Source: Candidatus Micrarchaeota archaeon
GTDB lineage: Archaea; Micrarchaeota; Micrarchaeia; Anstonellales; Bilamarchaeaceae
Length of the DNA: 64,000 nucleotides
Assembly: GCA_040758595.1 (NCBI GenBank)
Contig: JBFLVJ010000003.1
Location: 20,721-84,720 of the forward strand
Direction of reading: 5' to 3'
Part shown: piece after piece, positions 6,193-46,593 of the stretch
Numbering within the stretch: position 1 is the first letter of the stretch
How the letters are laid out: every line of letters starts with the position of its first letter
Program-made: the position numbers and the translations under genes
Notes under the pieces: model-generated
The model's input: the letters and a program-made list of their open reading frames with translations, nothing else
Told to the model about the DNA's origin: nothing
Databases searched by the model: none

Positions 6193-6489
6193 ATGCATAG
6201 TAAGCGGAAAACCATTATAAAGTCCAGCGTAATCACCTCGATACGCAAGCTCCTGGACCAGGCCCGGAAAGCCGCATCCAAGAGCCCGGCGAGGTCCAAG
6301 CGCTACGTGGACATGGCTTTCGACCTGCTCAAGAAGAACAAGGTCCGGCTCCCCAAGGAGCTTCGCAACAGCTTCTGCCGCAAATGCCATCTCATCTGGA
6401 TACCTGCCAAGACAATGACCGCCTACTATGACAAGAAGAACGACTGTCTCCGGGTCAGGTGCCGCTGCGGAGCGACAAAGCGCCTTTAG
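6193..6489 (+). CDS. rnp4: RNase P protein subunit Rpp21/Rpr2 (zinc-ribbon)
   Basis: Basic N-terminal helix, then C-x2-C ... C-x-C (FCRKCHLIWIP...CLRVRCRCG) at the C-terminus. This is the Rpr2 zinc-ribbon fold at ~100 aa. Confidence 0.55.
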   Translation: MHSKRKTIIKSSVITSIRKLLDQARKAASKSPARSKRYVDMAFDLLKKNKVRLPKELRNSFCRKCHLIWIPAKTMTAYYDKKNDCLRVRCRCGATKRL

Positions 6490-25597: not shown

Positions 25598-26890
25598 ATG
25601 GCGGGGAGACAAGCTCGATTGAAGGGTGAACTGAAGCAGCAGAGGGCGAGAGGACGTGCCGATAGCTTTCAGGAGGCGAAAGGGCTCCAAGAAGGGCTCT
25701 CCAGGAGGAGCGGCGCTTTCGCTCTGGGGCGTGACGAGAACGGCAATCCACAAGAGAGCCGTCTGCCGGGTTCTTTCAAGATGGTCTTGGACCGTTGGTA
25801 CGTGAGCATGCCCTTCAAGCGCGAGGACCGCTCGATTTTGGATAGGCCCTGGCCGGATGCCGAAGCGGCCATCAAGAAGGGCGATGTCCCCCGCTCGAAG
25901 CTGCGCGTGGAGACGCACATCATACTCGCGGTCAGGATGCTAAAGCATGTGCGCCAGGGCTACCAGGAAGAGCTCGAGCGCACCGATGATCTGATCGAGA
26001 GGCTGGAGCGCGCGGATCTCGCTCTCACCATATCTGATACGAAATACTCTGATCCCACCATCCGCTCGGCCATATCGGCTTTGAAGGAAGCCGATGCCGA
26101 ACTCGCCAGGAAGCAGGTCGCGATAAAGAAGCTGGTCTCCCGAGGAAGGATGGCGAAGATGGTCTCGATGCTTGAGGGGGCCCTCAAACTCCCAGAGGAG
26201 AGCAGGGCTATGGAGGTCGGGCGAGCATGCGCGGTCCTCGTCTCGGTCATAAACCGCCTCGGCCAATGGCGCGACAAGCAGGTGGGGAACCTCATGGAAT
26301 ACAACCTCCAGAAGGAGTGCTCCTTGCGGGTGGAAAGGGACAGATGGCTTTTCGGCTATCTCACCCGGCTGGCCGAGGATACCGCGCAGATGCACTGGTA
26401 CTGGGCGATGGACGGGGACAAGGTCTCGGTTCTTGACGAGATAGATCGCATGCTAAGATCCAACGTCCCGAAAGAGCAGATTCTTTCGTTCATGACCGAG
26501 AACCACCACCTCTTCCGGGTCGCGGGAAGGAAGAGGGATGCGGCCGAGCGATATGTCGCCATCTGCGAAGAGGGCATCCAGCCGACCGTGGGCATAAACA
26601 TCGATTACATGATAGGCCACTATGCATGGCTCTACCGCTATGTCCGGGACGATGAGATGCCCAAGGCCGCGAGTAAGATATCCCACCTCAGGCTTTTCGT
26701 GAACGCCAACAAGCCCACATATGTGATGGATGAGCTCTCCAAGAATCCCGATGGCTATCTGGGAGATGTCATCAGGCCGATGCGCGAAGGGGTGGATGCG
26801 TTCGAATCCGGCGTCATACCGGTGGCCCGGGAATGGTTCAAGGACGCCGTGGATTCCCTCAGGCAGTTCGTCTACCCGTCCAGGCGATGA
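25598..26890 (+). CDS. Hypothetical soluble protein (~370-430 aa), no recognisable domain
   Basis: Long ORF with consistent codon usage. The start is uncertain; the internal MVLDRWYV is plausible. Confidence 0.4.
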
Positions 26891-30399: not shown

Positions 30400-32646
30400 A
30401 TGAAGACGCTAAGATTCCTCATCATGCTCCTCGCAGCGGTTTCCATGGCTTTCGCGGCCACCGATGACGAAAGGGCCATCAAGGTCCTCAAGAGCGCGGC
30501 CGGGCAGCTCGGCTGGTCCGATGCCATATCCACAGACGAGGACGACAACCTCGGCTCCGGCATAACATACACCATCTCGCCCATGGGGACCGGCAGCGAC
30601 GAGGATTTCCACGGCTCGATAACCGTTTTCTCGACCGATCAGGAGCCCGGGTTCTGGATCGGTTTCCTGGACGAGCAGCTGGACATGGATCGCAGCAGCT
30701 ATCAGGGCAGGGACGCGGTCATCAGCCGCTATGGCGAGAACTGCAATCCGACAGGACTGGTGAAGGTCATCAATGATATGGTGGTCGGCATATTCGAGAG
30801 CATGTTCGGCGAGTCCGATGAGGAGAACTGCGTTACCATGCACGGCGCGGTGATCTGGTCATGCGGCAAATACATGTTCGCCTCCAACGATGCCCGCTCT
30901 GACGAGGGCGGGGAGGAGGATGCCATCGCGGCCGCCCTTTACGCAGCGGCGCAGGAGGAAGGCCTTTGCGAATACGGGGACACGCTGGTCGTCATGGTGC
31001 AGACGCCTGACTCGGCAGGCTCGGACAGGCTCACCGAGCAGGTCACGCTCGCCCAGAAGGTCAACGAATATTACGGCGTCGTCTCATACGGCCAGTACCC
31101 GCCGTTCAAGTTCAGCTTCAAGGACGCGGACGGCACTAGAGGCCAGAACGACTGGCATACCCTCCAGACCACTATGGCCACGTTCAGGGGGGACGGGAAC
31201 AAGTTCGGGAACTTCGAGGAGGAGGCGGTCAAGGCCGTGTTCGACGGCACCGATGTGCCACAGGACCTCTATTTCGAGAGGATAGTGTTCGTCTATTCCG
31301 GGGCTCCATGGCAGACCGACCGCTCCAAGCCGTTCTATGACGCCTGCGATTGGAAGAAGGACAGCGACTATATCGAGGCGGACGCAACCCAGGGGAAGCG
31401 CAAGATATACTCCAAGAACTTCATCTTTTTGAGCGAGCAGAGCGCGCTCGGCCAGTGGGCCCACGAGTTCGGCCACTCGCTCCCCTCCAGATATACCGCC
31501 AGCGCTCCCAGGGATTTCGGCAGGATAGACGACCGCTACAGCTATGCTCCTTACCAGTATGGCGAGATATCCGACTGGGGGCTGATGGGCTATGGGGTGT
31601 GGTGGCCCAACGACGCCACTTCGCCGGTCCACATGTCGTCCTTCTCCAAGCAATCCGCGAAGTGGCTGGAATACGCATCCGCGTCCATCAATCAGACCTA
31701 TGTCATAACATCGCTAGAAGACATGCAGAAGGGCGACACCATACTCAGACTGGACGATCCACTCTCCGCTGACGCGGAGCACTATTATATCATCGAGGCG
31801 CGGGACCCGACGGCTTTCTTCGGAGCGCCGGAATCCGGCGTGGTAATATACAAAGTCGGCAAGAATGCCGGCTACCATACGGTCAACGCCCTCGCTCCCC
31901 AGACCGCGAGGACGAGCGCCACGAACGCGAAAGGCCGGAGCTACCAGCTTCCAACCCTCTATGATTCCGCAGGGGTAGGTTCTGTATACATAGATGTGCC
32001 GGCCAACTTCAAGGTCACCCTGCTGAGAGAAGGGGACAAATCATCCACTGTCAAGATAGAGGAGTTCTCCCCGGTGAATCTCGTAGGTGCGACCATCGGT
32101 GCCATCGGCGCCGGACTCGGAGCGCTCCCGGGCGTGAGCCCGGGCGTGAACGCCCCGCCTCCTGATTCCAAAGGGCCGAAGCCCGACATCGATCTCCATG
32201 CCTATGACTCGGCAGGCAACCATGTCGGTATGGACTACCAGATCGGAGAATATGAGATAGACATCCCGGGCGCCATAGCCTCTGGGGACCTTGCGGACGA
32301 TTCCGAGTGGATATTCGTCCCTGAGGGCACCGATGTGAGGTATGAAGTGTCGGCCTATGACATGCAGCGGTTCCTCGCAGAGAACCCTGCGTTCGTTTCT
32401 GTGGCGAAACCGCAGGAATACACCGCCACTGCCGTGAAGTTCGATTCCAAGGGCGAGCGCTACGAAGCCGACCTCGGCACCGGCTCTGCCGCTGCCGGCC
32501 AGACGGTCCAGGTCAGGAGCCCTGCCGATCCATCGCTCCAGTACGTCCAGAGAGATGTTTCCGGTTTCGGGAACAACAGCATCTGTCCGCTGGTGCCTGC
32601 ATCGGTGCTGGGCATCCTGCTGCTGGCCGCCCGGAAAAAATCGTGA
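30400..32646 (+). CDS. Secreted zinc metalloprotease (HExxH; M6/InhA-like) with a C-terminal membrane anchor
   Basis: Signal peptide. WAHEFGHSLPSRY resembles the InhA HEFGH..P..Y motif. A Gly-rich linker is followed by the C-terminal SGFGNNSICPLVPASVLGILLLAARKKS, which is a PGF-CTERM-like TM plus basic tail. Confidence 0.5.
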   Translation: MKTLRFLIMLLAAVSMAFAATDDERAIKVLKSAAGQLGWSDAISTDEDDNLGSGITYTISPMGTGSDEDFHGSITVFSTDQEPGFWIGFLDEQLDMDRSSYQGRDAVISRYGENCNPTGLVKVINDMVVGIFESMFGESDEENCVTMHGAVIWSCGKYMFASNDARSDEGGEEDAIAAALYAAAQEEGLCEYGDTLVVMVQTPDSAGSDRLTEQVTLAQKVNEYYGVVSYGQYPPFKFSFKDADGTRGQNDWHTLQTTMATFRGDGNKFGNFEEEAVKAVFDGTDVPQDLYFERIVFVYSGAPWQTDRSKPFYDACDWKKDSDYIEADATQGKRKIYSKNFIFLSEQSALGQWAHEFGHSLPSRYTASAPRDFGRIDDRYSYAPYQYGEISDWGLMGYGVWWPNDATSPVHMSSFSKQSAKWLEYASASINQTYVITSLEDMQKGDTILRLDDPLSADAEHYYIIEARDPTAFFGAPESGVVIYKVGKNAGYHTVNALAPQTARTSATNAKGRSYQLPTLYDSAGVGSVYIDVPANFKVTLLREGDKSSTVKIEEFSPVNLVGATIGAIGAGLGALPGVSPGVNAPPPDSKGPKPDIDLHAYDSAGNHVGMDYQIGEYEIDIPGAIASGDLADDSEWIFVPEGTDVRYEVSAYDMQRFLAENPAFVSVAKPQEYTATAVKFDSKGERYEADLGTGSAAAGQTVQVRSPADPSLQYVQRDVSGFGNNSICPLVPASVLGILLLAARKKS

Positions 32647-36169: not shown

Positions 36170-37228
36170 TTGCCGCTTTTGATTGGCATGGAAAAGATGC
36201 AGTCAGTCTGGAAGACCACTTCAGGGGAGGGGCTCGAGATAAAGGAGGCCCCGGTACCCAAGATAAAAGACAACGAGGTCCTCATCAAGGTCAAGGCGAC
36301 CTCCATCTGCGGCACCGACATCCACATCTACAAGTGGGATGCCTGGGCCCAGCAGAGGATCGGCAAGAACATACCGTATATCTTCGGCCATGAGGTCTCT
36401 GGAGAGATCGTCGAGATGGGAAAGGACGTGAAAGGGCTCTCTATCGGCGACCATGTCTCTGCCGAGACGCACATATCCTGCGGCTACTGCCAGCAGTGCA
36501 AGACCGGCCAGGAGCACATCTGCCAGAACGTCAAGATACTGGGCGTGGACACCAACGGCACCTTCGCGGAATATCTCGCCCTGCCATACAGGAACGCCTG
36601 GGTCAACGACAAGAAGATCCCCCACTGGGTGGCAACGGCCCAGGAGCCTTTGGGCAATGCCGTCCACACCGTCTTCGACGGCGAAGTGGCCGGCAAGACC
36701 GTGACGGTCTTCGGCATGGGCCCTATCGGCGTCTGCGCGGTGAAGCTCTGCAAGCTCGCAGGGGCCGACAAGGTCATCGCGGTGGATCACCATGAAGGCA
36801 GGCTCAGGTTCGGCAAGGATTTCGGCGCCGACATCACTATACAGAGCGGCGACGGGAAAGATGTGCGCAAACAGATACTGGACGCCACCGATGGCTTCGG
36901 GGCCGACGTGTTCCTTGAGATGGCCGGAGCGCCTGCGGCGATGCAGGACGGCCTGGCGACACTCAAGGCCGGTGGAAGGGCGTCTATACTGGGCGTATTC
37001 CCGAAGCCGTTCGAAGTGGACGTCACCAACGACATCGTGTTCAAGGGCATAAGACTGGGCGGCATCAACGGAAGGAAGATGTTCGACACCTGGTACAAGG
37101 CCAAATCGTTCCTGCCAAAGATGGGCCTGGAGAAGCTGGTCACCCACAGGATGAAGCTCAGCGAGATCGAGAAAGGGTTCGACGTCCTGTTGAGGCGCGA
37201 AGGGATGAAGGTCGTCCTGGAGCCATAG
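36170..37228 (+). CDS. tdh: L-threonine 3-dehydrogenase (Zn-dependent MDR family)
   Basis: The GHEVSGEIVEMG catalytic zinc motif, the structural zinc Cys cluster CGYCQQC and the Rossmann motif GMGPIG are present. Confidence 0.75.
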   Translation: MPLLIGMEKMQSVWKTTSGEGLEIKEAPVPKIKDNEVLIKVKATSICGTDIHIYKWDAWAQQRIGKNIPYIFGHEVSGEIVEMGKDVKGLSIGDHVSAETHISCGYCQQCKTGQEHICQNVKILGVDTNGTFAEYLALPYRNAWVNDKKIPHWVATAQEPLGNAVHTVFDGEVAGKTVTVFGMGPIGVCAVKLCKLAGADKVIAVDHHEGRLRFGKDFGADITIQSGDGKDVRKQILDATDGFGADVFLEMAGAPAAMQDGLATLKAGGRASILGVFPKPFEVDVTNDIVFKGIRLGGINGRKMFDTWYKAKSFLPKMGLEKLVTHRMKLSEIEKGFDVLLRREGMKVVLEP

Positions 37229-38264
37229 AGTGGTAGGTGCCTCTTTTCCCTCGCTTTACTGGCGGCAAGGGCTCTCCCTCGCTCAGAATGTCCTTCTTTT
37301 TGTGAAATGCTACCGATTCGGCCATCTGCCGATAGAACCTAGCCGCCTCCTTCTTGCGCTGCTTTGCCTCGTTTTTATCATCTGCCTCGGCCACGAACCG
37401 GCGCAGCGTTCCCTCGATATCATCCATGGGTATCTCGCTGTTCGAAGCCAGGTTCCGCAATGTCACCTGCGCCATGTATCTCTTCTGGAGCGATGGGGAT
37501 AGGAGCGCTTCCATCACTGGAGGCACCGCCTTCGGGCCTAATCTCGGCAAGGATCTGGATGCTTCATCAACTACCCTGTTCTCAGGGTCATCGAGCATCC
37601 CTATCAGCGCATCTATGGCCCGTTCATCATCGAATGTGCCCAGCTCCCTCGCGATGTTCGCCTTGGCCCACATCATCTGTCCTGGGATGGACGCGATTAT
37701 CGCCGGGAGCGGGTCGCAGCGGAGCTTCTTCAACGCCGCGAAAGCGGCGTCCACCACGCAGCTCCTCCCCGCGCTGCCGTCATTGGTGTCACCGATCCGT
37801 TTTATCAGCGCATCCATGGCGGCAGGGTCTCCGATTTTACCCAGTAGCGTCACCGCTATCTCGCGTATGTTGCTGTGGATGCTGTCCGTGGATTCCATCA
37901 AAGGCCCGACCGCCCCCTTGCCCATCGCCAGGATGTCATCATCGCGTTTCAGCATGAGCAGGCAGAGCACCCGGTCATTATCATCCAGGCCATCGAACTC
38001 CCTGTTGAAGAAATGCTTCGCTGAAGCTTCTCCTATGAAGTAATGCGGGTCTCTCAGGAGCGGCCTGAACTTGCCGGATGCCTTCGGGTCATCTATCCTT
38101 GAGAGGATGTCTATGCAGTCTATGTTTCCCCTCCTTATCTGTTCGACCAGCGGAGAGAGCGCTGATGCCCCGAGCGCGGCGAGCCTGTCTTTGGTTTCCT
38201 GGCTGACAAACGGCTCCAGCTTCTTTATCAGCCTCTTCGCTCTCCACTCCCCGAACCAGCTCAT
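37158..38264 (-). CDS. HEAT-repeat protein A (PBS-lyase-type HEAT repeats) with a basic C-terminal tail
   Basis: Repeated AIDALIxxLxDxxxxVRxxA units. The C-terminus is ...ILSEGEPLPPVKRGKRGTY.... It is the last gene of the HEAT/AAA/vWA operon. Confidence 0.6.
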   Translation of the reverse strand: MSWFGEWRAKRLIKKLEPFVSQETKDRLAALGASALSPLVEQIRRGNIDCIDILSRIDDPKASGKFRPLLRDPHYFIGEASAKHFFNREFDGLDDNDRVLCLLMLKRDDDILAMGKGAVGPLMESTDSIHSNIREIAVTLLGKIGDPAAMDALIKRIGDTNDGSAGRSCVVDAAFAALKKLRCDPLPAIIASIPGQMMWAKANIARELGTFDDERAIDALIGMLDDPENRVVDEASRSLPRLGPKAVPPVMEALLSPSLQKRYMAQVTLRNLASNSEIPMDDIEGTLRRFVAEADDKNEAKQRKKEAARFYRQMAESVAFHKKKDILSEGEPLPPVKRGKRGTYHSMAPGRPSSLRASTGRRTLSRSR

Positions 38265-38704
38265 CTGACTACCTTCCTGTATATATCCGGCCAGTTCTTT
38301 CCGGTCTTTCTGGGCGCCTTCACGGTACCTTCGGCAAGCATGCCATCCACCGGCATCAATGGCCTTTTCGAGCCGCTAAAAACCTTCGCTATCTTCATAT
38401 AAGTCAGCGTCGCCCAGCCTATCGCATCCTGAACCTCATTCCCAGTCCCCGAACCCTTCACTTCGCTACAGTATCCTCTCAGCGTTTCTGCAATCCTTGG
38501 AAGGTCGATATCAGAAGATTCGGCTAGTCTGATTAGCAGCCAAGCAGCCGTGACCGCGACCCCTTCATCGTTATCCCTCAAGGTTTCTATCAAGGCAGGC
38601 ACAACCCTGGCGCCCTCCATCCCGGCGAGCCTCCTGGCAGCATCTCTTCTTTCTGCGGCATCCTGGCTTTTCAGCTGTGCTATCAGCCGCTCGACGTTAT
38701 CCAT
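38261..38704 (-). CDS. HEAT-repeat protein B with the conserved C-terminal tail motif
   Basis: Contains ERRDAARRLAGMEGARVVPALIETLRDNDEGV HEAT units. The tail is DGMLAEGTVKAPRKTGK. It overlaps neighbours by 4 and 8 nt. Confidence 0.6.
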   Translation of the reverse strand: MDNVERLIAQLKSQDAAERRDAARRLAGMEGARVVPALIETLRDNDEGVAVTAAWLLIRLAESSDIDLPRIAETLRGYCSEVKGSGTGNEVQDAIGWATLTYMKIAKVFSGSKRPLMPVDGMLAEGTVKAPRKTGKNWPDIYRKVVR

Positions 38705-39428
38705 AAACGACCCTCAATACCCTGTACGTCCGTGGCTTCCGGGGCGCCTTCACGGTTCCTTCGGACAGGACTCCACCCCTAGAGAGCCGCTTCTTCCTCT
38801 CAGCGACCTTGGCCGCGATGTCCCGATATATCTCTCCGATTGACATGCGCACCTCCTCACGCTCGTCTTTAGATGCATCCGAAGCCCACCCATTCAGAGC
38901 TTCCCCAACATCATCAAGCGGGATATCGTGCTTTTGCGCCAGCGTCATGAGCGCCCTGGAGGCTATCCAGGGGAGCGCGTTCTTTCCGTTGCCCAGAGCC
39001 TCTATGAACACCGGCACGGCCCTGGCCCCGAACTTCAGCAGGCCCTCCTTGGCTTCGTTCTGGACATCCATGCTCTCATCGCCCATCGCCTCTGCCAGCG
39101 CCGGGATGGCTTTCTCGTCTTTCATGGCGCCCAGTGCCTTGACCAAGGCTATTTTGACTTCACTATCCTCCTCCTTTTCCAGCGCCGCTATCAATCCCGG
39201 GACAGCGCTCTTGTCGCGCATAGTCCGCAAGGCGTTGGCGGCGGTGCTCCTGACATCGAAAGACGGATCCGATAGCGCGGCTACAAGGTCCGGTATGGTC
39301 TCCGGATCGCATATCTGGCCCAAGCGCCGGGCAGCGCTCCGTCTCGCCTTCGGGTTCGGATGCGTTCTAATATCCATCACATGGGCACGTGTCTCATCAT
39401 CCATTGCGTACCCTCCTTCTTCCGGCAT
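38697..39428 (-). CDS. HEAT-repeat protein C with the conserved C-terminal tail motif
   Basis: About 5 HEAT units. The tail is RGGVLSEGTVKAPRKPRTYRVLRVVYG. Confidence 0.6.
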   Translation of the reverse strand: MPEEGGYAMDDETRAHVMDIRTHPNPKARRSAARRLGQICDPETIPDLVAALSDPSFDVRSTAANALRTMRDKSAVPGLIAALEKEEDSEVKIALVKALGAMKDEKAIPALAEAMGDESMDVQNEAKEGLLKFGARAVPVFIEALGNGKNALPWIASRALMTLAQKHDIPLDDVGEALNGWASDASKDEREEVRMSIGEIYRDIAAKVAERKKRLSRGGVLSEGTVKAPRKPRTYRVLRVVYG

Positions 39429-39936
39429 GATACATGGCCGGTTTCTTCGGCGGCTTCACGGTCCCTTTGGAAAGGAGCCCGCCCTTCGGCATGCCCGCTT
39501 TCCTGGTATTTGCTGCCCTCAAGTATATCTCAAGAGCGAATTCGTGCGCGAGTTTGGCGGTCTCAGCACCCTCCTCTCGTCTCACCACATCGACGAATCT
39601 TTTCAGCGGCCCAGCAATCTTTGCCGGATCGATATCGCCGTTTCCGGCGAGCGTTGAAACGATATCCATGATGACCACCCTGGATTCCTTCTCGCAGTCT
39701 TGCAAGGCATCTATTAGGGATGGCAAGGCTTCGCTGCTTCCGAGATTCCTCAGCACCTGTATGGCGCTGTCCCTCACTTCCCGGTCCGGGTCCTTCAGAA
39801 GAGCCGCTATGGCAAGCACTACCTCTTTATCCTCCCTGCTCCCGAGTCTCTCCAATGCCCGGATGGCGAAAATCCTCACATGTTTATCAGGATCGTTCAG
39901 GACTTTGAAATTGATGTCTTCATCCATGCATCTCAC
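39397..39936 (-). CDS. HEAT-repeat protein D with the conserved C-terminal tail motif
   Basis: HEAT units. The tail is KGGLLSKGTVKPPKKPAMYHAGRRRVRNG. Its start overlaps the vWA gene stop by 4 nt. Confidence 0.6.
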   Translation of the reverse strand: MRCMDEDINFKVLNDPDKHVRIFAIRALERLGSREDKEVVLAIAALLKDPDREVRDSAIQVLRNLGSSEALPSLIDALQDCEKESRVVIMDIVSTLAGNGDIDPAKIAGPLKRFVDVVRREEGAETAKLAHEFALEIYLRAANTRKAGMPKGGLLSKGTVKPPKKPAMYHAGRRRVRNG

Positions 39937-42212
39937 CTCAGCTTGTTCGCCATCCTCCGGTAATATCTCTCGAAGAAATGGTGCAGCCTGCCGTCCGCCA
40001 CATCCCTCTTGGAGACTATCAGATAGTTGCCTATCCCGAAAATCCGGTCGAAATACGGCATCATCTTCGTTTCCGGGAACTCCGGGCTGGTTATCCCGAT
40101 GCCGAACACCTTTACCCGGTCGCGCTTCCAGGCTTCGTCCACTGCCCGGGCGGCATCCTCAAGAGGGGACTTCCCCACGTTGGCCTCTCCATCGGTTATC
40201 AGGAACACCTGCTTGTGGCCCTTGTGCCTGATCCCCCGCTCCTTCATCCTGAAGCACATGTGGCGCAGCGGCCCTCCTACGGGTGTGCCTCCGCCGGCAT
40301 CGCTGCCCCGTATCTCATTATCCTGCGCCCCTTTCATGAGTATGAACTCTTCGGTATCCCCGGATGTGAATCCAGCCACGATAAGAGGGTCCTTGAGCGT
40401 CATGCTGGCGAGCCCCAGGATGCCGCAAGCCTGGAGTATCTCCCCTCGCATGTCTAGGGTGGAGTCGCTCAGGTCGATGAGCACTCCGGTGGCGACATCC
40501 CTCTCTTCATAGATGACGCGCGAATGGTAATCCCTGCCCGGGTTCCTCCCGTTCCGCACTTCTCTCATATACTCATCGAAGAGCTCGGGATCGACATCTC
40601 CGTCCTCAAGCCCTCTCACCAACATACCCTCTTTCGGGGCGAATTTCTTGAATATGGTCCTGATGCGCAAGGCCTCGGCCTCATCTATGAGGATGGGTTC
40701 TCCCTCTGCCTTGTTCTCTATTATCACATGCTCGGCTTTGGTCAGCTTCTCCCCGTCCCAGCCGTCGTAGCTGAACCTCTCGCCGCCCGGCTTGGTCTCA
40801 TCGCCGGTTCCATCCTTGGGCTCGCCTTGCTTCGGCTCCTGCTTCTTCGGTTTCGAGAAGATGCTCGGCCGGCCGGTCCTCGGTTCGGTATCGGATTCGC
40901 GGATGGAGAGCGGGAGGGAGGAGAGCGATCTTTTGAGTCCTTCGCCCTCCTTCCTGGCCCTCCGTTCGATCACAGTGTACGCCTTTATCGCGGCGTTCAT
41001 GGACGCGGTTCCGTCGGTATCCATCCCCCTTTCCATGGCATCGACATGTCCCGAGATGGAGGTGAAATCCTCTCTTATCCCTTCAGGCACTTCGTTCCTG
41101 GTCCTTCCTGCTATCGAGTACTGGAGGGTCGCTTCCAGCAGGCATCCGATGTCCTCTCCCTCGAGCGCCGCCCTCCTCTCGAAAAGCATGTCCGAGTTTC
41201 TTGCGTATGTGTTCCGCAATCCGGAAAGGTATTCCATGTTGTTCTGGTCCACCCTCCCGTCATCGATCCAGTTGTGCAGGCGGTAGAGCAGTTCGGGGAA
41301 CTCCACGAGCCTGCCGATATCCTCGAAATTGCGTATCTCTAAAGTCTCACCGCCTTTGGCTACCCGGATCACCACTCCGTCGTCATATCGCCTGCATCCC
41401 TGGTACTGCGCACCGAACGATCCGTAATCGAACACGTCCGGATGCATGTTGATGTCGAATGTCCTCCATTTGTGGTGGCCAACTTCGTGCCAGAAAGAGA
41501 CCAGGTAATCCTCCATGTTGGTCTCCCTCTCTTCCCAGGTGCCCACGTACGGGGCGATTGTCACCACGCCCTCCCTGTTGGTGGAGAAACTCCTGTCACT
41601 ACCTATCTCCACGACAGCATCGCCGCCTATCTCCATCTTGGCAAGCGCCCCGAAACCGAACTTTATCATGGCTTCCTCTGCCATCACGACCGAGGCATCC
41701 CATTCCTTGAGGTAGGTCTCGAACATGTCGTCGAAAATCAAAGCGGCTATCATCGATTCTTCGTCGTATTCGTTGAGCTCGTCGACGAACGGCTTCCAGA
41801 ATATGTTCTTGCCCATCACCGGAAGGTACTTGGATAGGAACAGGTCGCATGCGATATCGGAATGGAAATCCTCCACGGCCCTGCGCAGCTGGAACGCCCT
41901 CCAGTTGTCGTGCGAAAGCACCTGGGCCGCGTGCTTGAGCAGTTTCTCGGTGGTGAGCACCATGCCTGAAGAAGAAGCGTGCTGGAGCGCGGCCAGGTAT
42001 TCACGCAGGGTGGCCGAAGAATCGGTCGGGCTCCTGGAAGCGAGCTTCTCAAGGTCGGAGGCTGAGAGCTTCAGCTTCGGCACGGCGGCGCTGAGCATGG
42101 CCAGCAGGCCTTCTGCGCTCCGAGGTATCTCGTCCGGCTCCAGCTTCAGCCTGGCCGGTGGAGCCTTGCCGCCTAGTTCGGAGGGCTTCTTCGTCTTCCT
42201 CCGTGTCCCCAT
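39933..42212 (-). CDS. von Willebrand factor A domain protein, CbbO/NorD-like partner of the AAA+ ATPase (759 aa)
   Basis: The C-terminal vWA/MIDAS region is VFLITDGEANVG ... VKVFGIGI. The size matches CbbO. It sits directly downstream of the MoxR-class ATPase. An internal HEVGHHKW (HExxH) motif is noted. Confidence 0.6.
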   Translation of the reverse strand: MGTRRKTKKPSELGGKAPPARLKLEPDEIPRSAEGLLAMLSAAVPKLKLSASDLEKLASRSPTDSSATLREYLAALQHASSSGMVLTTEKLLKHAAQVLSHDNWRAFQLRRAVEDFHSDIACDLFLSKYLPVMGKNIFWKPFVDELNEYDEESMIAALIFDDMFETYLKEWDASVVMAEEAMIKFGFGALAKMEIGGDAVVEIGSDRSFSTNREGVVTIAPYVGTWEERETNMEDYLVSFWHEVGHHKWRTFDINMHPDVFDYGSFGAQYQGCRRYDDGVVIRVAKGGETLEIRNFEDIGRLVEFPELLYRLHNWIDDGRVDQNNMEYLSGLRNTYARNSDMLFERRAALEGEDIGCLLEATLQYSIAGRTRNEVPEGIREDFTSISGHVDAMERGMDTDGTASMNAAIKAYTVIERRARKEGEGLKRSLSSLPLSIRESDTEPRTGRPSIFSKPKKQEPKQGEPKDGTGDETKPGGERFSYDGWDGEKLTKAEHVIIENKAEGEPILIDEAEALRIRTIFKKFAPKEGMLVRGLEDGDVDPELFDEYMREVRNGRNPGRDYHSRVIYEERDVATGVLIDLSDSTLDMRGEILQACGILGLASMTLKDPLIVAGFTSGDTEEFILMKGAQDNEIRGSDAGGGTPVGGPLRHMCFRMKERGIRHKGHKQVFLITDGEANVGKSPLEDAARAVDEAWKRDRVKVFGIGITSPEFPETKMMPYFDRIFGIGNYLIVSKRDVADGRLHHFFERYYRRMANKLR

Positions 42213-42216
42213 CGCG

Positions 42217-43260
42217 CTAACCCCTTATGCCGTAGACGTCTGATGCCATCGTGGAAAGGGCGTTGACGGTCTCTCCGAAATCGGTCGTCATGGCGTTGAA
42301 GATGACCTGCCTTGCCGCATCTCCCGGGGAGAGCCCGGCGTTTATCGCCCTGACCGCGTTCACCAGCACCCTCGGAGAAGGCGCTTCGCTCAGATTGAGG
42401 AGCATGTTGCGCAGCCTGGCCTTTATCTGGACGGCATCGCTGTCGGTGGCCGGGATGGAGCTCCTTCTCTGCTGCTCCAGGAACACCCTGCAGAGTGATG
42501 CGCACATGGTGCATATCTTCTCCGCGCTCTTTGCGTCATTGACATCCCCCACATTCGCTCTCACGATGTCGAGGAGCCTTCCGGCATCGGTCACCATCTC
42601 CAGCTCTATGGTCGCGAGCCTCTGCCTCATGGCCGGGGATATCCTGTCGATGCCTCCGTCATAATACGGGTTGAGCGCGAACACCACCACCGTCTCTGGG
42701 TTCAGCCTATATACCTCGCCCACACCCAGGTGGTCGCTGAGGTTGACCTCCCTTTCGTTGACAAGCGGGTAGAACAGGCCGTCCATGTCTCTCCTGAGCT
42801 TGTGCAGCTCATCGATGAAAAGCACCACTGGTTCCCCGGACAGCCCGGCGACTGAGATGTTCGAGGGCCTGAACTGCTGGAAATGCGATGTGGTCGCTTC
42901 TCCCTCCTCCTTCAGCGTGACCACGAACATGTCGGTGCGGCCCATCATCTTGGTCTCGGTCTTGTCCGGATCGCAGGTGGTATAAAGGAAGGGCAGCCCC
43001 CACTTCTGGGCCATCCTTCGCACCAGCATGCTCTTGCCCACGCCTGTCGGCCCGACCAGCAGAACGGCGTTCCTGGTCTTGCGATAGACCTCCATGGCGG
43101 ACTCCTCGTTCTTCTGCTGGATGTAATCGATTTTCGGTTCCGGCTGGATTATCCTATCCTTGAGGCTCTCCACGAGGCTCTCTTTCCTCGGTATATATAT
43201 CCCGTTCTTCCCCCTCACATGGCCGTTTATCCGCTTCGGCGCTACTACTGTCGCTGGCAT
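42217..43260 (-). CDS. MoxR/CbbQ/NorQ-class AAA+ ATPase (AAA_5)
   Basis: Walker A is LLVGPTGVGKS and Walker B is VVLFIDELHK. It is a single AAA module of ~347 aa in the typical pairing with a vWA protein. Confidence 0.7.
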   Translation of the reverse strand: MPATVVAPKRINGHVRGKNGIYIPRKESLVESLKDRIIQPEPKIDYIQQKNEESAMEVYRKTRNAVLLVGPTGVGKSMLVRRMAQKWGLPFLYTTCDPDKTETKMMGRTDMFVVTLKEEGEATTSHFQQFRPSNISVAGLSGEPVVLFIDELHKLRRDMDGLFYPLVNEREVNLSDHLGVGEVYRLNPETVVVFALNPYYDGGIDRISPAMRQRLATIELEMVTDAGRLLDIVRANVGDVNDAKSAEKICTMCASLCRVFLEQQRRSSIPATDSDAVQIKARLRNMLLNLSEAPSPRVLVNAVRAINAGLSPGDAARQVIFNAMTTDFGETVNALSTMASDVYGIRG

Positions 43261-43275
43261 GGATTGTTCACCAGG

Positions 43276-43304
43276 ATAAAGAGTGTTTGGAAGTGTTTAT
43301 AAAT
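43276..43304 (-). promoter_or_regulatory. Promoter element copy 2 (ATAAAGAGTGTTTGGAAGTGTTTATAAAT, contains a TATA box) upstream of the AAA+ ATPase gene
   Basis: 27/29 identical to the element at 44711-44739. A TTTATAAA TATA-like box lies ~35 nt upstream of the ATG at 43260 on the minus strand. Confidence 0.55.
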
Positions 43305-43318
43305 GTGATTATTGACGG

Positions 43319-44035
43319 TTATTGGCGTGCTACTCTAAGGGCCCCCTTCGCGCTCCTGTAAATCACCTTCTTCGGTGGTTTTATCCTGCCTTCGAGCAGC
43401 ACCCCGTCCATCTGCTTGGATTTGGCGATACTATTCGCTATCGTCATATACGAAAACATGGCATCGCCCTTAAGCTCCCCCTTTTTTGCCAGATCTTTTT
43501 CTGCTTCATAGGCTGCCTTGAGCCGTCTTCGGGCTACGGAGAGGTCGACTTCAATGCCATCCTCGGCCATCGATCCAAGCACGCAGGCGATCGGGAACTG
43601 GATATCAGGGTAACGGAGAGCCTCCAATGAAGCATCCACAGCGAGCTCTCCGAGTTCCTTAAGTGCAGAAATCAAATATGCTTCTTGAAAGTCGCGATCG
43701 CTCTCCCGCAACAGCTGGATTATGCGCGGAATCAGGCTACTGTCGCCGGATTTTTTTATCATTTTCACAGCAATGGTGCGTACTTCCCATTCTGGATCTA
43801 TCAATGCCAGCACAAACTCAGGCAATATCCTGGGATCGGATAATTTTGACAACGCTATGGCCGAATTCGCCCTGACCCAAGGGTCGATATCCCGTAGATT
43901 TTTGATGAGCTGTTCCACTGCACGGGGACCTCCAATTTTTCCCAATCTGACGGCCGCGCGTACTTTTACAGCACGTTCGGTCTCGGATAATGGCATGGTG
44001 TTGAGCTGATTGATACAATAGTCTATTTCATCCAT
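43319..44035 (-). CDS. HEAT-repeat protein E with the conserved C-terminal tail motif
   Basis: HEAT units. The tail is MDGVLLEGRIKPPKKVIYRSAKGALRVARQ. Confidence 0.6.
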   Translation of the reverse strand: MDEIDYCINQLNTMPLSETERAVKVRAAVRLGKIGGPRAVEQLIKNLRDIDPWVRANSAIALSKLSDPRILPEFVLALIDPEWEVRTIAVKMIKKSGDSSLIPRIIQLLRESDRDFQEAYLISALKELGELAVDASLEALRYPDIQFPIACVLGSMAEDGIEVDLSVARRRLKAAYEAEKDLAKKGELKGDAMFSYMTIANSIAKSKQMDGVLLEGRIKPPKKVIYRSAKGALRVARQ

Positions 44036-44047
44036 GGAAAGCCCTCA

Positions 44048-44698
44048 TCATCTTCTGAGTCGCCTCCTTTCCTTGGCCTTCCCGTCATATCCGCGCGGCT
44101 TGGGCACGGTCCCGCCAGACAGGACCCCGCCATTCTGCATTTTCTGAGATACTGCTTTCGCTATCTTGAGATACGCCTCTTTTGCATCTTCCCTGGCCGA
44201 TGCATATTCCTCGCTGGTGCCGCTCATCTTCACGGAGAACGCACGCTTCCCGAGTGAATCCTCGACCGCGGAAAGGTCGATTTCAGCTATCTGAGCGAGT
44301 TTGAAGAGAGCTTCAGCAGCGTGCCATCGCACCCCGTCATCCTCATCTCTGAGGGCGCCGATAAGCGCAGGGACGGGACGGCTATCCTTCATCTCGCCGA
44401 GCGACTCCGCAGCCGCACTCCTGAAACCTGCTTCCCTGTCCCCGAGCATCTCGATCAGCGCCGGCACCGCTCTGGAGAACAGCTCGTTCTCTCCGCTCTT
44501 CTCAGCGATCCATCCTATGGCTATGGCGGCCTTCCACCTAGCATCCGGATTGTCGCTTTCCAACGCATCCAAAAGGCGGGGCACTGCCGGCACGCCTATA
44601 TCTGCCAAATCGCTGACGGCCACCCGCCATCCGTTCTTGCATGATTTGGATATAATCCTCCTCACCCTGAGGTCGGCCAGCCATTCGGTGATGCTCAT
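44048..44698 (-). CDS. HEAT-repeat protein F with the conserved C-terminal tail motif
   Basis: HEAT units (PALIEMLGDREAGFRSAAAESLGEM ...). The tail is NGGVLSGGTVPKPRGYDGKAKERRRLRR. Confidence 0.6.
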   Translation of the reverse strand: MSITEWLADLRVRRIISKSCKNGWRVAVSDLADIGVPAVPRLLDALESDNPDARWKAAIAIGWIAEKSGENELFSRAVPALIEMLGDREAGFRSAAAESLGEMKDSRPVPALIGALRDEDDGVRWHAAEALFKLAQIAEIDLSAVEDSLGKRAFSVKMSGTSEEYASAREDAKEAYLKIAKAVSQKMQNGGVLSGGTVPKPRGYDGKAKERRRLRR

Positions 44699-44710
44699 AC
44701 AATCTCGATT

Positions 44711-44739
44711 ATAAAGAGTGTTTAGAAGTGATTATAAAT
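44711..44739 (-). promoter_or_regulatory. Promoter element copy 1 (ATAAAGAGTGTTTAGAAGTGATTATAAAT) upstream of HEAT-repeat gene F
   Basis: It has the same 29-nt element as at 43276-43304, with the TATA box ~37 nt upstream of the ATG at 44698. Confidence 0.55.
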
Positions 44740-44758
44740 AAATTTATTAGGAGCCAAG

Positions 44759-45214
44759 TCAGGGACTCTTGAAGATGCCGCCCTCGACCTCTTCCACGCC
44801 CACGACTTCCTTGAATTCCAGCGGGTGGAAGCTGTTGCCCTCCCATATCACGAGCACTTTGTTCCTGGACACCTTGGCGGCGAATATCACTTCCTCTCGC
44901 GAAGATAGGCGTTTCCCCAGCTCCTCCATCGCCCTCTCGCCCATCCCGGATAGCAGGTAATCCTTGACGCTGAGGAATGCGGTCTTGAGCTCCCCCGTCC
45001 GCTCTTTCCCTAGGACAAGGTTGAATCCCTTGATCACGCCCTCCTTCTTCATCTTGTTGAACCTGAGGTATGCGGTCGGCTTGGGGATGCCTATCATATC
45101 TGCCACTGTGGAGAGCGGGGTGCTGGCATCCTTCTTGAGTATCTCGATTATCTGTCTGTCTATCTCGTCCATCTGATTACCCTTTCCTGGAGGGGGCATA
45201 CGATAGTCTTTCAA
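44759..45214 (-). CDS. Lrp/AsnC-family transcriptional regulator (HTH + RAM domain)
   Basis: EIDRQIIEILKKDASTPLSTVADMIGIPKPTAYLRFNKMKKEGVIKG is an Lrp-type HTH. It lies directly upstream of, and co-directional with, the HEAT/AAA/vWA operon. Confidence 0.65.
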   Translation of the reverse strand: MKDYRMPPPGKGNQMDEIDRQIIEILKKDASTPLSTVADMIGIPKPTAYLRFNKMKKEGVIKGFNLVLGKERTGELKTAFLSVKDYLLSGMGERAMEELGKRLSSREEVIFAAKVSRNKVLVIWEGNSFHPLEFKEVVGVEEVEGGIFKSP

Positions 45215-45289
45215 TTTGATAACATTTATAACAATAATGAAATAATTACAAAAAAACTAGAATATCTATATCTGATTTGAGGTGGGAAG

Positions 45290-46018
45290 ATGAAAGCGGT
45301 CCAGTTCCAGTCTCTGGAACCTATCCTGAAAGGCGGGATACCCGAGGGCGACCAGATACTGGTCTCAGGGCCTCCGGGTTCCGGTAAGAGCATACTCAGC
45401 ATGCAGTTCATACATGAGGGCGTCAAGAAAGGGGAGAGCGGCGTCTTCTTCACCCTGGACAGCGAGCGGCAGTATCTCATCGACCAGATGAAGAACGCCG
45501 GCATACCTGTCGATAAGCTCATCGAGCAGGGAAAGATGGATATCATCGAACTCGACCCCACGGATATCTACGTGCTCCTGGACGAGATGAAAAAGCACAT
45601 AGAGAGGCTCGGGGCGAAGAGGATGGCCCTGGACTCGCTCTCTATACTATACGTCTATTGCGGTTCCTACCGCAACCTCCCGGAGGACCTCATCGCGTTC
45701 CTGGAGAAGACCGACTACCGGCCGCCCATAACGCTCGGCGATTCGGTGAAGAAGCAGATGCTCTACAGCATCATGACGCAGATAAGGCATCTCGGATGCA
45801 CAACGCTGCTCATCTCAGAGCTGCAGAGGGAATCCCAATGGTTCTCCAGGGATACCATCAGCGAGTTCGCCTGCGACGGCATAATCCTGCTCGATTACCA
45901 CGCGCTCGGTCCCGCGGTCACGCGCACCATGACCATAGTCAAGATGAGGCGCAGCGACTACAGCGAGGGCGTCCACGAATTCAAGATAACGAAGAACGGC
46001 ATCGAGCTCTCAGCCTAG
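45290..46018 (+). CDS. KaiC-like RecA-superfamily ATPase (single-domain)
   Basis: Walker A is SGPPGSGKS. The KaiC/RadA-paralog architecture is present at ~240 aa. Confidence 0.7.
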   Translation: MKAVQFQSLEPILKGGIPEGDQILVSGPPGSGKSILSMQFIHEGVKKGESGVFFTLDSERQYLIDQMKNAGIPVDKLIEQGKMDIIELDPTDIYVLLDEMKKHIERLGAKRMALDSLSILYVYCGSYRNLPEDLIAFLEKTDYRPPITLGDSVKKQMLYSIMTQIRHLGCTTLLISELQRESQWFSRDTISEFACDGIILLDYHALGPAVTRTMTIVKMRRSDYSEGVHEFKITKNGIELSA

Positions 46019-46593
46019 GGTCTCTCGACGAATTCGAAGATGCAGGCATCGGTCAGCCCGGTGGCCTTGCAGCTTTTCTCCACTGACGAGTATCGCTTCT
46101 TATAGAATGATTCCAGCACGCCCTCCATGACCCCGCGGACATAGTGGCATGCCGGCTTGCCGCACTTTCCGCGCGTCTTGAGCATCTCGAGCGCGATGGG
46201 AGAGTTGGCGGTGCTCAACACCACCTTCTTCCCGTTGTCCACCATCTCCACTATCTTTATGTCTCCCATACCGGTGAATTTCAGTATCTCCCTTCCCATC
46301 TCGAGCGACGGGTCTCCGGTAGTGGAGAGCCGCTGGAAGACCGTTCTCAGTTCAGCTTTCCGCGCCATGTATCTTTGGGAGCCGGTGGCGGTCTGATATA
46401 TCCCCATCTCGTGCATCACCCGCCCCGCGGCTTCCTCACCCATATCCTCGCTCAGCCTTTCGTGGAACCTGATGAGGACCTCTGCGGGCATGATGACCAT
46501 CGTACGGTCCAGTATGCTTATGGTCCCGTTCTCCATCCTCAGCATCTTGGTCGCGACGAGTTTCGACAGCATCTCTATGCTCAAGACAAACAC
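46015..46593 (-). CDS. V4R (4-vinyl reductase) domain protein
   Basis: GKPACHYVRGVMEGVLESF matches the conserved Cys-His...G..G V4R core, in ~190 aa. Confidence 0.45.
   Translation of the reverse strand: MFVLSIEMLSKLVATKMLRMENGTISILDRTMVIMPAEVLIRFHERLSEDMGEEAAGRVMHEMGIYQTATGSQRYMARKAELRTVFQRLSTTGDPSLEMGREILKFTGMGDIKIVEMVDNGKKVVLSTANSPIALEMLKTRGKCGKPACHYVRGVMEGVLESFYKKRYSSVEKSCKATGLTDACIFEFVERP

Follow-up and report, generated by a model that had tools for sequence, protein, structure and literature searches.

The six HEAT-repeat proteins encoded in the operon described here share a conserved C-terminal module ending in a flexible basic tail of about 25–30 residues, and this tail most likely serves as a shared handle by which the varied HEAT proteins are attached to one partner. 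The window analyzed is 64,000 nt long and covers positions 20,721 to 84,720 of contig JBFLVJ010000003.1 from Candidatus Micrarchaeota archaeon. The operon, which is of a rare archaeal type, occupies the minus strand (44698..37158), with six HEAT paralogs accompanying a NorQ/NorD-like pair of an AAA+ ATPase and a vWA protein (Table 1). Junctions between the operon genes either overlap or leave gaps of 4–12 nt, and the flanking genes are metabolic.

Table 1. Genes and promoter-like elements of the operon, in order of transcription within each group (window coordinates).
Feature	Position	Strand	Details
HEAT paralog F, 216 aa, operon's first gene	44048..44698	-	module 44051-44284; tail core 44051-44131 (GGVLSGGTVPKPRGYDGKAKERRRLRR)
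HEAT paralog E, 238 aa	43319..44035	-	module 43322-43552; tail 43322-43408 (DGVLLEGRIKPPKKVIYRSAKGALRVARQ)
MoxR-class AAA+ ATPase, CbbQ/NorQ type, 347 aa	42217..43260	-	
NorD/CbbO-like vWA protein, 759 aa	39933..42212	-	
HEAT paralog D, 179 aa	39397..39936	-	module 39400-39636; tail 39400-39483 (GGLLSKGTVKPPKKPAMYHAGRRRVRNG)
HEAT paralog C, ORF 243 aa, annotated 235 aa	38697..39428	-	module 38700-38927; tail 38700-38777 (GGVLSEGTVKAPRKPRTYRVLRVVYG)
HEAT paralog B, 147 aa	38261..38704	-	module 38264-38512; tail 38264-38347 (DGMLAEGTVKAPRKTGKNWPDIYRKVVR)
HEAT paralog A, 368 aa, operon's last gene	37158..38264	-	module 37161-37436; tail 37161-37295 (DILSEGEPLPPVKRGKRGTYH + 22-residue extension)
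AT-rich promoter-like element (TTTATAATCACTTCTAAACACTCTTTAT)	44711..44748	-	TATA-like box ~40 nt upstream of F start codon
Identical promoter-like element, second copy (TTTATAAACACTTCCAAACACTCTTTAT)	43276..43313	-	upstream of AAA+ start codon, spacing as at F

Conserved C-terminal Module

The original prediction that all six HEAT paralogs carry a common C-terminal motif was confirmed, with each ORF found on the minus strand where it had been placed. The C-terminal parts of the six proteins align with invariant L, G, P, and Y, and the motif G-x-[ILM]-L-x-E-G-x-x-K-P-P-K-x(0-5)-[MI]-[YF]-R-x(2-4)-R is present in 6/6. The peptides that had been quoted as termini are too short; every ORF runs on for 4–24 residues to its stop codon, adding NWPDIYRKVVR in B, VLRVVYG in C, VRNG in D, SAKGALRVARQ in E, DGKAKERRRLRR in F, and HSMAPGRPSSLRASTGRRTLSRSR in A. 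Similarly, the proposal that the last ~20–30 residues are conserved holds for the tail itself and not for the extent of the conserved unit, which is a C-terminal module of ~80 residues, comprising a two-helix cap ([ED][IV]DL..V...L..[FY]V, then A...Y..IA.AV..K) followed by the tail.

Across 36 aligned modules, the best conserved tail positions are G (31/36), [LIM] (34/36), K/R (34/36), PP (30/36 and 35/36), [MIT] (35/36), [YF] (34/36), R (32/36), and a distal R/K (35/36). An acidic residue, which a ligand of the MIDAS would require, occupies the motif's E position in just 19/36 tails, and paralogs D and F have no acidic residue anywhere in the core motif. The extreme C-termini in the window (VVYG, VRNG, VARQ, RLRR, KVVR) are unlike the A-x-A ends that are common elsewhere in the family.

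The bodies preceding the module are far more variable, being 24–44% identical or unalignable among tail-bearing proteins. All six paralogs score above the Pfam cut-offs for HEAT_2/HEAT_PBS, a likeness to alphaRep and PBS-lyase-type proteins (CpcE/F, NblB) that extends to structure, with alphaRep proteins (Foldseek E about 1e-8) and CpcE/F being the closest folds to the body. They differ from these proteins in scoring below the NCBIfam equivalog cut-offs for lyases, and the cap-plus-tail module is absent from all 25 generic HEAT homologs retrieved. In the AlphaFold model of paralog C, the solenoid is predicted with pLDDT above 90 to residue ~210, whereas the tail forms a coil with pLDDT 55–59, in keeping with a motif that becomes folded only once bound.

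Recent tandem duplication does not account for the tail likeness, given the synonymous codon change and low DNA identity. Within the 14-codon tail core, DNA identity between paralogs is 26–79%, and each pair writes 2–6 identical core residues with different codons. The DNA repeats spanning the tails are 60–78% identical, and for tails with a protein identity of 20/24 the DNA identity is 55/72. The motif is also kept in orthologous operons whose vWA proteins are 46–58% identical. This conservation of the module points to selection on the peptide.

Homologs and Genomic Context

The six modules were combined into a profile and used to search 1.84 billion protein representatives (E<=1e-3), returning 34 proteins, of which six were self-hits and 27 were new; the remaining match, P0045, was excluded as a tail-bearing homolog, having neither a scoring stretch nor a tail. 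The module lies at the extreme C-terminus in every real match, and within the window it is matched by the six HEAT ORFs only; the tail likeness is thus more than chance. All 27 new homologs are singletons on archaeal metagenome contigs (short ones, for those examined), and wherever gene context was read they sit in tandem HEAT arrays.

An orthologous operon (L003), with a vWA protein 46% identical to the one in the window, contains at least six tail-bearing genes, one of which (6340-7068) retains the tail on a body without detectable HEAT similarity. The same MAG carries two more tail-bearing HEAT genes at a second locus (L012), apart from the AAA+/vWA machine. In L004, a tail-bearing HEAT gene comes directly after the vWA gene. 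On both contigs with enough context, namely the window and L003, tail-bearing genes surround a co-oriented AAA+ and vWA pair; genomic linkage is based on two full operons plus fragments.

The AAA+ ATPase and vWA Protein

The ATPase possesses Walker A (GPTGVGKS) and Walker B (VLFIDELH) motifs, a CbbQ_C domain scoring above the Pfam cut-off, and a conserved N-terminal extension of ~55 residues. It matches CbbQ and NorQ at E 4e-13 to 6e-11. The C-terminal ~270 residues of the vWA protein match NorD over its finger and vWA regions (E 1.3e-6), with an intact MIDAS (DLSDST, GGTP, TDGEAN) in which DxSxS, T, and D are kept. Both proteins fall far below the NCBIfam cut-offs. The N-terminal ~480 residues of the vWA protein are acidic, accounting for most of its net charge of -23, and contain an HE[VI]GHH motif at 242–247 that is invariant in all three vWA orthologs. 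This N-domain gave no match to metallopeptidase families even at E<=10, and the structural model of the vWA protein (pLDDT 42) is unusable.

Proposed Docking of the Tail and Alternative Explanations

A docking or targeting role for the peptide on these divergent paralogs, as originally predicted, is supported by its retention in orthologous operons, on a body lacking detectable HEAT similarity and under synonymous change, and by its predicted coil state. Each HEAT paralog may be regarded as a variable alphaRep-like solenoid, offering a protein-binding surface, joined to the conserved two-helix cap and the flexible basic peptide. The tail would bind a protein, and one common receptor would tether every paralog. 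The likeliest receptor would be the operon's own remodelling machine, the AAA+/vWA complex, and we consider the chance that the tail docks there to be about even. By analogy with CbbQ6O1 and NorQD, this machine would consist of a hexameric CbbQ/NorQ-like MoxR ATPase and one NorD/CbbO-like vWA subunit. The HEAT proteins could be its interchangeable clients or adaptors, with the tail as the handle through which ATP-driven movement acts on them. If true, substrate recognition by MoxR-type ATPases could become testable.

Candidate docking sites include the C-terminal face of the AAA+ ring, where the NorD C-terminus binds, the MIDAS, which the Glu common in the tails could reach, and the vWA protein's N-domain, which is acidic and lineage-specific. 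MIDAS ligation cannot be universal, because the tail has no invariant acidic residue, and should the AAA+ pore be plugged by a NorD-like finger, as it is in NorQD, the tail is unlikely to be threaded through it. Docking on the machine is favored by the conservation, terminal position, and predicted coil state of the tail, by the operon linkage with its tight gene junctions and two identical promoter-like elements, by the complementary charges of tail and N-domain, by the membership of both partners in a class that uses C-terminal peptides, and by the two genes at the separate locus, which fit an address tag read in trans. Counted against it are the non-uniform extreme C-termini, the position of those same two genes away from the machine, and the small number of operons on which linkage is based.

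With net charges of +4 to +9 and a richness in K, R, P, and G, the tails could instead bind nucleic acid or the ribosome in the way of basic ribosomal-protein extensions. We regard this as unlikely and do not favor it; nucleic-acid binding was already raised in the original prediction. The HEAT proteins would then be anchored to rRNA, pre-ribosomes, or DNA, and the AAA+/vWA pair would act on the particle as Midasin/Rea1 does. Midasin/Rea1 is a single 5000-residue chain that works with Rix1-Ipi1 HEAT/ARM cofactors, and a UBL domain supplies the Glu that its MIDAS binds. The present system resembles it in combining an AAA+ motor and a MIDAS domain with helical-repeat proteins, and the ATPase does match Midasin AAA domains weakly; however, UBL proteins were not seen here, and only gene neighborhood connects the system with ribosomes. 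Ribosome-related neighbors occur at 3/4 other loci, with L003 adjoining SUI1 and S3-L22-S19-L2-L23-L4-L3 genes, L007 a Nop-domain gene, and L012 a 16S rRNA gene, but those of the window operon are metabolic, and the source genomes are presumably small archaeal ones so rich in translation genes that such neighbors can arise by chance. The conserved positions (G, L, E, G, PP, [MI][YF]R) also form no plain basic run, being more typical of a protein-protein motif, and the tails contain neither an AT-hook (RGRP) nor an S/T-P-K-K core. A head-to-tail assembly, in which each tail binds either the groove of another paralog, like a nuclear localisation signal in importin-alpha, or its cap, and the ATPase assembles or dismantles the resulting hetero-oligomer chain, seems rather improbable. 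Among the structural neighbors of the body are alphaRep binders as well as designed armadillo proteins with (KR)n peptides in the groove, the cap is kept together with the tail in every member, and each operon has at least six paralogs. Yet AlphaFold leaves the tail undocked from its own body, and the bodies share only a generic HEAT consensus, or none in one case, which makes a conserved groove receptor unlikely, although the cap alone could serve.

A processing site is a further alternative. Cleavage after [MI][YF]R by the vWA protein's N-domain, with its HExxH, would expose an HbYX-like end for the 20S proteasome or another ring; PAN ends in LYR, and among HEAT proteins Blm10/PA200 has an HbYX terminus. 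Such processing is highly improbable, despite the invariance of HE[VI]GHH and the strong conservation of the hydrophobic-aromatic-Arg triplet. The triplet lies 4–24 residues before the stop codon in 36/36 members and is never terminal, so that the HbYX reading fails its defining test; the residues past it are conserved too, the N-domain resembles no metallopeptidase family in the search above, and no proteasome link was seen. The suggestion of an encapsulin-type cargo-loading peptide, by which the HEAT proteins would enter a shell, was not supported and is barely credible, the resemblance being only the general one that varied proteins carry a conserved peptide at the C-terminus. None of the loci read has a shell gene within or next to it, 0/20 other window ORFs scanned match an encapsulin family, the motif is unlike the GSL-type cargo-peptide consensus, and the consistent partners are the AAA+ ATPase and vWA protein.

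Comparison with Known Systems

Docking of the tail on the AAA+/vWA machine would have a precedent in the CbbQO Rubisco activase of Acidithiobacillus, a MoxR AAA+ hexamer with one vWA adaptor bearing a C-terminal MIDAS domain (Tsai et al., 2015, as reviewed in PMC5437159). A basic H/K-R motif at the C-terminus is common to the Rubiscos of cbbQ-cbbO clusters despite ~30% identity, the motif is required for activation, and an acidic residue in those Rubiscos is implicated in MIDAS interaction (PMC5437159). Both systems place clients, putative ones in the present case, in the same cluster and have a basic C-terminal motif on them, and the ATPase here matches CbbQ (E 4e-13). In contrast to the single client enzyme of CbbQO, the clients here would be six or more HEAT-repeat proteins in each operon, with a motif of ~25 residues that is proline-rich and internally structured rather than a dipeptide. 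The vWA N-domain here, with its HExxH, is also unrelated, and neither the operon nor its flanks contain a Rubisco gene.

In structure, both the ATPase (E 5e-12) and the vWA domain (E 1.3e-6, finger region aligned) are closest to NorQ and NorD (PDB 9qh4-9qhg). [quoted passage not shown] Many family tails end in R-A-[IFVM]-A, similar to ...LVA; however, the docking C-terminus is on the vWA subunit itself in NorQD and on separate proteins here, where the vWA protein ends in ...YYRRMANKLR and nitric oxide reductase genes are absent. A body, linker, and tethering peptide to an AAA+ machine, as proposed here, would resemble SspB in mechanism only, the AAA+ clade being another and there being no sequence relationship. 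SspB tethers to ClpX through a short C-terminal peptide behind a flexible linker and a folded substrate-binding body. ClpX is an unfoldase, whereas MoxR proteins are remodellers that are not known to thread.

Gene Overlaps and Promoter-like Elements

The 22-residue extension of paralog A overlaps by 71 nt with the 3' end of a convergent dehydrogenase gene (36170-37228). The final codons of paralog D overlap the signals that start paralog C, namely its Shine-Dalgarno sequence and start codon, and distal conservation in D-type paralogs may therefore be partly at the nucleotide level, as the codons for their last residues (RRVxNG) also form these signals of the next gene. The promoter-like element occurs in exactly two copies within the window, before F and before the AAA+ gene.

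Operon organization

The eight genes between 44698 and 37158 form a single minus-strand block in which all genes are co-oriented, and the operon is assigned to the metagenome-assembled genome (MAG) GCA_049322935.1, labeled Candidatus Micrarchaeota. Neighboring genes overlap by 4–32 nt or are spaced by 4–12 nt, with the sole exception of a 58-nt gap preceding the AAA+ gene. This gap holds the second of two copies of an AT-rich 28-nt element, TTTATAAWCACTTCYAAACACTCTTTAT, the first of which precedes paralog F, and both copies are equally far from the start codons of the respective genes. No further copy occurs elsewhere in the window, nor in 100 shuffles, and the two look like archaeal TATA-box promoters, probably duplicated, from which the block would be transcribed as two co-regulated units.

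Genes and AT-rich elements of the operon, in 5' to 3' order along the minus strand
Feature	Position (nt)	Strand	Remark
AT-rich 28-nt element TTTATAAWCACTTCYAAACACTCTTTAT, copy 1	44711-44748	-	upstream of F
HEAT F	44048-44698	-	operon ORF
HEAT E	43319-44035	-	operon ORF
AT-rich 28-nt element TTTATAAWCACTTCYAAACACTCTTTAT, copy 2	43276-43313	-	58-nt gap upstream of AAA+ gene
AAA+ ATPase	42217-43260	-	operon ORF
vWA protein, 759 residues	39933-42212	-	operon ORF
HEAT D	39397-39936	-	operon ORF
HEAT C	38697-39428	-	operon ORF
HEAT B	38261-38704	-	operon ORF
HEAT A	37158-38264	-	operon ORF

Conserved C-terminal module

The original prediction that all six HEAT-repeat paralogs of the operon share a C-terminal motif was confirmed, as their C-terminal parts align and the motif extends to a defined protein family. 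The tail of 20–30 residues that had been described is real, but the conserved unit is larger, comprising a module of ~80 residues in which the tail follows a two-helix cap; similarly, the peptides quoted for the tails were correct in sequence, but they are not the true termini, since the ORFs continue for 4–24 residues. Within the module, [ED][IV]DL..V...L..[FY]V is followed by A...Y..IA.AV..K and then by the tail, for which the family consensus is G.LLEG..KPPK...MYR..R. In an alignment of 36 modules, the tail positions are occupied by G (31/36), [LIM] (34/36), E (19/36), a second G (28/36), K/R (34/36), two prolines (30/36 and 35/36), [MIT] (35/36), [YF] (34/36), R (32/36) and a distal R/K (35/36).

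Recent tandem duplication or gene conversion does not account for this likeness, because the 14 codons of the tail core are only 26–79% identical in DNA between paralogs, identical tail-core residues differ by two to six synonymous codons per paralog pair, and DNA repeat detection recovers the tails merely as 60–78% copies. Two genes from one sample have tails that are identical at 20 of 24 positions in protein and 55 of 72 in DNA, with bodies only 32% identical. Between genomes, the paralog bodies are too divergent for one-to-one orthology to be resolved.

The basic end is retained also in genes that are last in their locus. In D-type paralogs, the final codons AGG AGG GTN NNN AAT GGA TGA (RRVxNG*) are dual-coded with the Shine-Dalgarno sequence and ATG of the next gene, both in the window (39397-39430) and in the equivalents at three other loci (L004, L009 and L012). 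Paralog A runs 71 nt (37158-37228) into the 3' end of a convergent zinc-dehydrogenase gene (36170-37228), a read-through that adds a 22-residue extension past the TYH triplet, and the homolog P0059, the last gene of the second locus, likewise has a long extension into its convergent neighbor.

Predicted structure of the HEAT proteins

Tandem HEAT-like repeats of the PBS-lyase/alphaRep type, helical hairpins of ~31 residues, are indicated by the Pfam scores of the paralogs, all six of which exceed the cut-off for HEAT_2, and by the AlphaFold2 model of paralog C, which was built with a 33-member family alignment. The model is an all-helical solenoid with a mean pLDDT of 92.6 (>90 to about residue 210), of which the terminal long helix (182–210) bears the conserved Y..IA..V..K, and its nearest counterparts among solved structures are alphaRep binders, CpcE/F and designed armadillo proteins. 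Since residues 211–235 are modeled as coil at a pLDDT of 55–59 behind this confident solenoid, the conserved cap is predicted to be followed by a tail that behaves as a disordered linear motif. Docking of the tail onto its own solenoid was considered as well, and the model does not predict such a fold-back.

Distribution of the family

A profile built on the modules of the six paralogs, searched for other bearers of the tail among 1.84 billion representative proteins, returned 34 matches at E<=1e-3, comprising the six paralogs themselves, 27 further proteins and one spurious match without a scoring stretch. The module lies at the C-terminal end in every real match, and HEAT body, cap and tail together define a new protein family of ~30 clusters among these representatives. 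Each of the homologs examined is encoded on a metagenome contig and forms a cluster of one. A word-indexed homolog search with paralog C found solely generic HEAT proteins without the tail, the same kind of search with the 36-sequence module alignment returned no matches, and scans against NCBIfam and PADLOC assigned no family or defense-system membership.

A search of 5.8 billion clusters yielded just two relatives of the vWA protein, 58% and 46% identical to it. The gene for the latter lies on L003, a contig of 18.8 kb, where the order HEAT, HEAT, AAA+ and vWA recurs and is followed by three further genes; the five genes flanking AAA+/vWA all end in DGEILS....KPPKG...GGMFR..., as does a sixth that is truncated at the edge of the contig, and for one of these tail-bearing proteins neither Pfam nor BLAST detects similarity to HEAT proteins. 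Immediately downstream of the gene for the 58% relative is a HEAT gene ending in MPGEMLPARIKPPKKGIYRMRRVPNG, and other members occur on short contigs, where two to four tail-bearing HEAT genes stand in tandem. The objection that the motif might be lost in orthologs from related genomes therefore fails, as the tail is kept at the loci of both vWA relatives and in the other arrays.

Scans of 185,579 species-representative genomes with vWA and AAA+ alignments detected no ortholog of either protein, the only matches being two distant bacterial MoxR genes with 27–30% identity. A metagenome scan added solely a second contig, on which the AAA+ and vWA genes of L003 recur, and viral contigs contained no relatives of the vWA protein.

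Partner ATPase and vWA protein

The AAA+ ATPase scores 60.1 bits against AAA_5 (cut-off 22) and 26.4 bits against CbbQ_C (cut-off 20.6), possesses Walker A (GPTGVGKS) and Walker B (VLFIDELH) motifs, and has as its best PDB matches CbbQ (6l1q, 5c3c) and NorQ (9qh4, 9qhd), with E values of 4e-13 to 6e-11. Sequence comparison places it in the MoxR class, as an enzyme of CbbQ/NorQ type. It belongs to none of the NCBIfam equivalogs (NorQ, CbbQ, GvpN and others), the best being GvpN with 43 bits vs. a cut-off of 267, and on these scores it represents a separate, unnamed subfamily.

The vWA gene lies directly downstream of the MoxR gene and is co-oriented with it, with a gap of 4 nt in the window and 6 nt in L003. 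Its product scores 19.5 against Pfam VWA, under the cut-off of 23.8, and its profile matches NorD (9qhd_G) with an E value of 1.3e-6 over the C-terminal ~270 residues, which include the segment of the pore-inserting finger. The MIDAS elements DLSDST, GGTP and TDGEAN (DxSxS, T, D) are invariant in the three orthologs. The remaining ~480 residues, at the N-terminus, are acidic. No homology of this domain to NorD/CbbO was found, the PDB profile match beginning only at profile position 485, and residues 1–480 match no Pfam family, even at E<=10. An HExxH-like HE[VI]GHH at residues 242–247 is also invariant in the three orthologs, as are HNW[IV]DDGRVD and TDGTAS, and from its sequence the first of these may be a metal site or peptidase. 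With three sequences as input, AlphaFold gave no usable model of the vWA protein (mean pLDDT 41.9).

Possible role of the tail

MoxR ATPases with vWA partners are described as widespread, with target recognition understood for very few of them (PMC13036017). NorD attaches to NorQ in the NorQD complex through its extreme C-terminus (...LVA), which docks on the NorQ post-sensor-1 loop and outweighs the finger in the stability of the complex (PMC13036017). [quoted passage not shown] Like these clients of CbbQO, the cluster-encoded HEAT proteins have in common a basic C-terminal peptide ([YF]R in 32–34 and distal R/K in 35 of the 36 modules), often with Glu. Because of this likeness and the two precedents, docking is the favored model, and by analogy there is about an even chance that the tail is a common handle tethering each HEAT protein to the AAA+/vWA machine. 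The tail would attach every HEAT protein to this machine, and the variable solenoids would supply differing binding surfaces. The docking or targeting peptide proposed in the original prediction is thus supported in its general form rather than for any particular receptor. Threading of the tail into the AAA+ pore would be improbable should the finger plug it, and ligation of the MIDAS cannot hold for all tails, because paralogs D and F have no acidic residue in the core motif. The acidic, lineage-specific N-domain of the vWA protein is an attractive candidate receptor.

Other functions of the tail are less probable. Binding to RNA or the ribosome is unlikely but is retained, because three of the four other loci adjoin ribosome-related genes; against nucleic-acid binding, the AT-hook R-G-R-P or S/T-P-K/R-K/R core is absent from the six tails of the window and from the family consensus. 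Assembly between HEAT proteins through the tail is given a lower probability again. A proteasome-docking HbYX motif, in which hydrophobic-Tyr-X are the final three residues and the carboxylate is free, was rejected for the tail as encoded, since [MI][YF]R is followed by 4–24 residues in 36/36 members, and it is very improbable that cleavage exposes an HbYX-like end. The suggestion of an encapsulin cargo-loading peptide was discarded on two counts: no gene for an HK97-fold encapsulin shell was present in the operon, at six other loci (L003, L004, L007–L009 and L012) or among 20 other ORFs scanned in the window, and the family consensus does not fit the encapsulin cargo type, for which the consensus is GSLxIGSLK or LTVGSL.

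Returning to docking, the system belongs to the MoxR-vWA kind and is distinguished by having many clients or adaptors, which share a defined motif of recruitment type. More tentatively, the operon might encode an archaeal multi-adaptor remodeling machine, in which six to eight interchangeable HEAT-repeat receptors plug into a NorQ/NorD-like MoxR-vWA motor through the same C-terminal peptide, possibly acting on ribosomal particles. Analogues of such an arrangement are the adaptors that plug into the Clp or p97 machines and the Rix1/Ipi1 cofactors of Midasin. No specific description of a HEAT, MoxR and vWA system in archaea was found in the literature searched. If the multi-adaptor reading is true, the MoxR family would gain in the tail its first defined recruitment motif, and with it a direct handle on target choice. 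The likely clients or adaptors encoded beside the motor are many, with differing bodies and one well-defined peptide in common, and with a single peptide, a single candidate receptor complex and six naturally occurring variants in each genome, the system offers a clear experimental setup in a family from a poorly understood archaeal lineage.

Second locus and genomic neighborhoods

The homolog P0049 shares its locus-tag prefix with the genome of the window and lies on a separate contig of the MAG. Two tandem tail-bearing HEAT genes are located at 5395-7012 of contig JBMOPV010000087.1 (L012); adding the six paralogs of the operon brings the genome to at least eight tail-bearing proteins, encoded at two loci. 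The pair has no AAA+ or vWA gene in its vicinity and is flanked on one side by a 16S rRNA gene (3688-5243, minus strand) and on the other by genes for two giant proteins, of 1274 and 1185 aa. These are convergent with the pair and without a Pfam match, and the nearer (1274 aa) has a hydrophobic, signal-peptide-like N-terminal segment. L009 is syntenic with this locus.

In other genomes, tail-bearing HEAT arrays adjoin translation genes, namely SUI1 and an S3-L22-S19-L2-L23-L4-L3 block in L003 (9253-14689) and a Nop-domain gene in another contig, L007 (3072-3911). These neighbors may reflect chance in small genomes or may point to a function linked to ribosomes.

Immediately upstream, and co-oriented with the operon, is a gene for an AsnC-type HTH regulator (44759-45214), beyond which are a KaiC/RadA-like ATPase (PF06745, 45290-46018) and then a V4R-domain gene, within 44759-46593; in L007 (5160-6161), too, a PF06745 ATPase is near the HEAT pair. 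Four large ORFs of the window have no Pfam match at E<=1e-5 (7548-9653, 19864-21273, 25598-26890 and 30400-32646, with 701, 469, 430 and 748 aa, respectively). Otherwise, the scanned part of the window encodes housekeeping functions, including the mevalonate pathway, glutamine synthetase, aRF1, a PolX-like polymerase and a 2-oxoacid dehydrogenase E2 subunit, the gene for which is flanked by an ORF that is E3-like in appearance.
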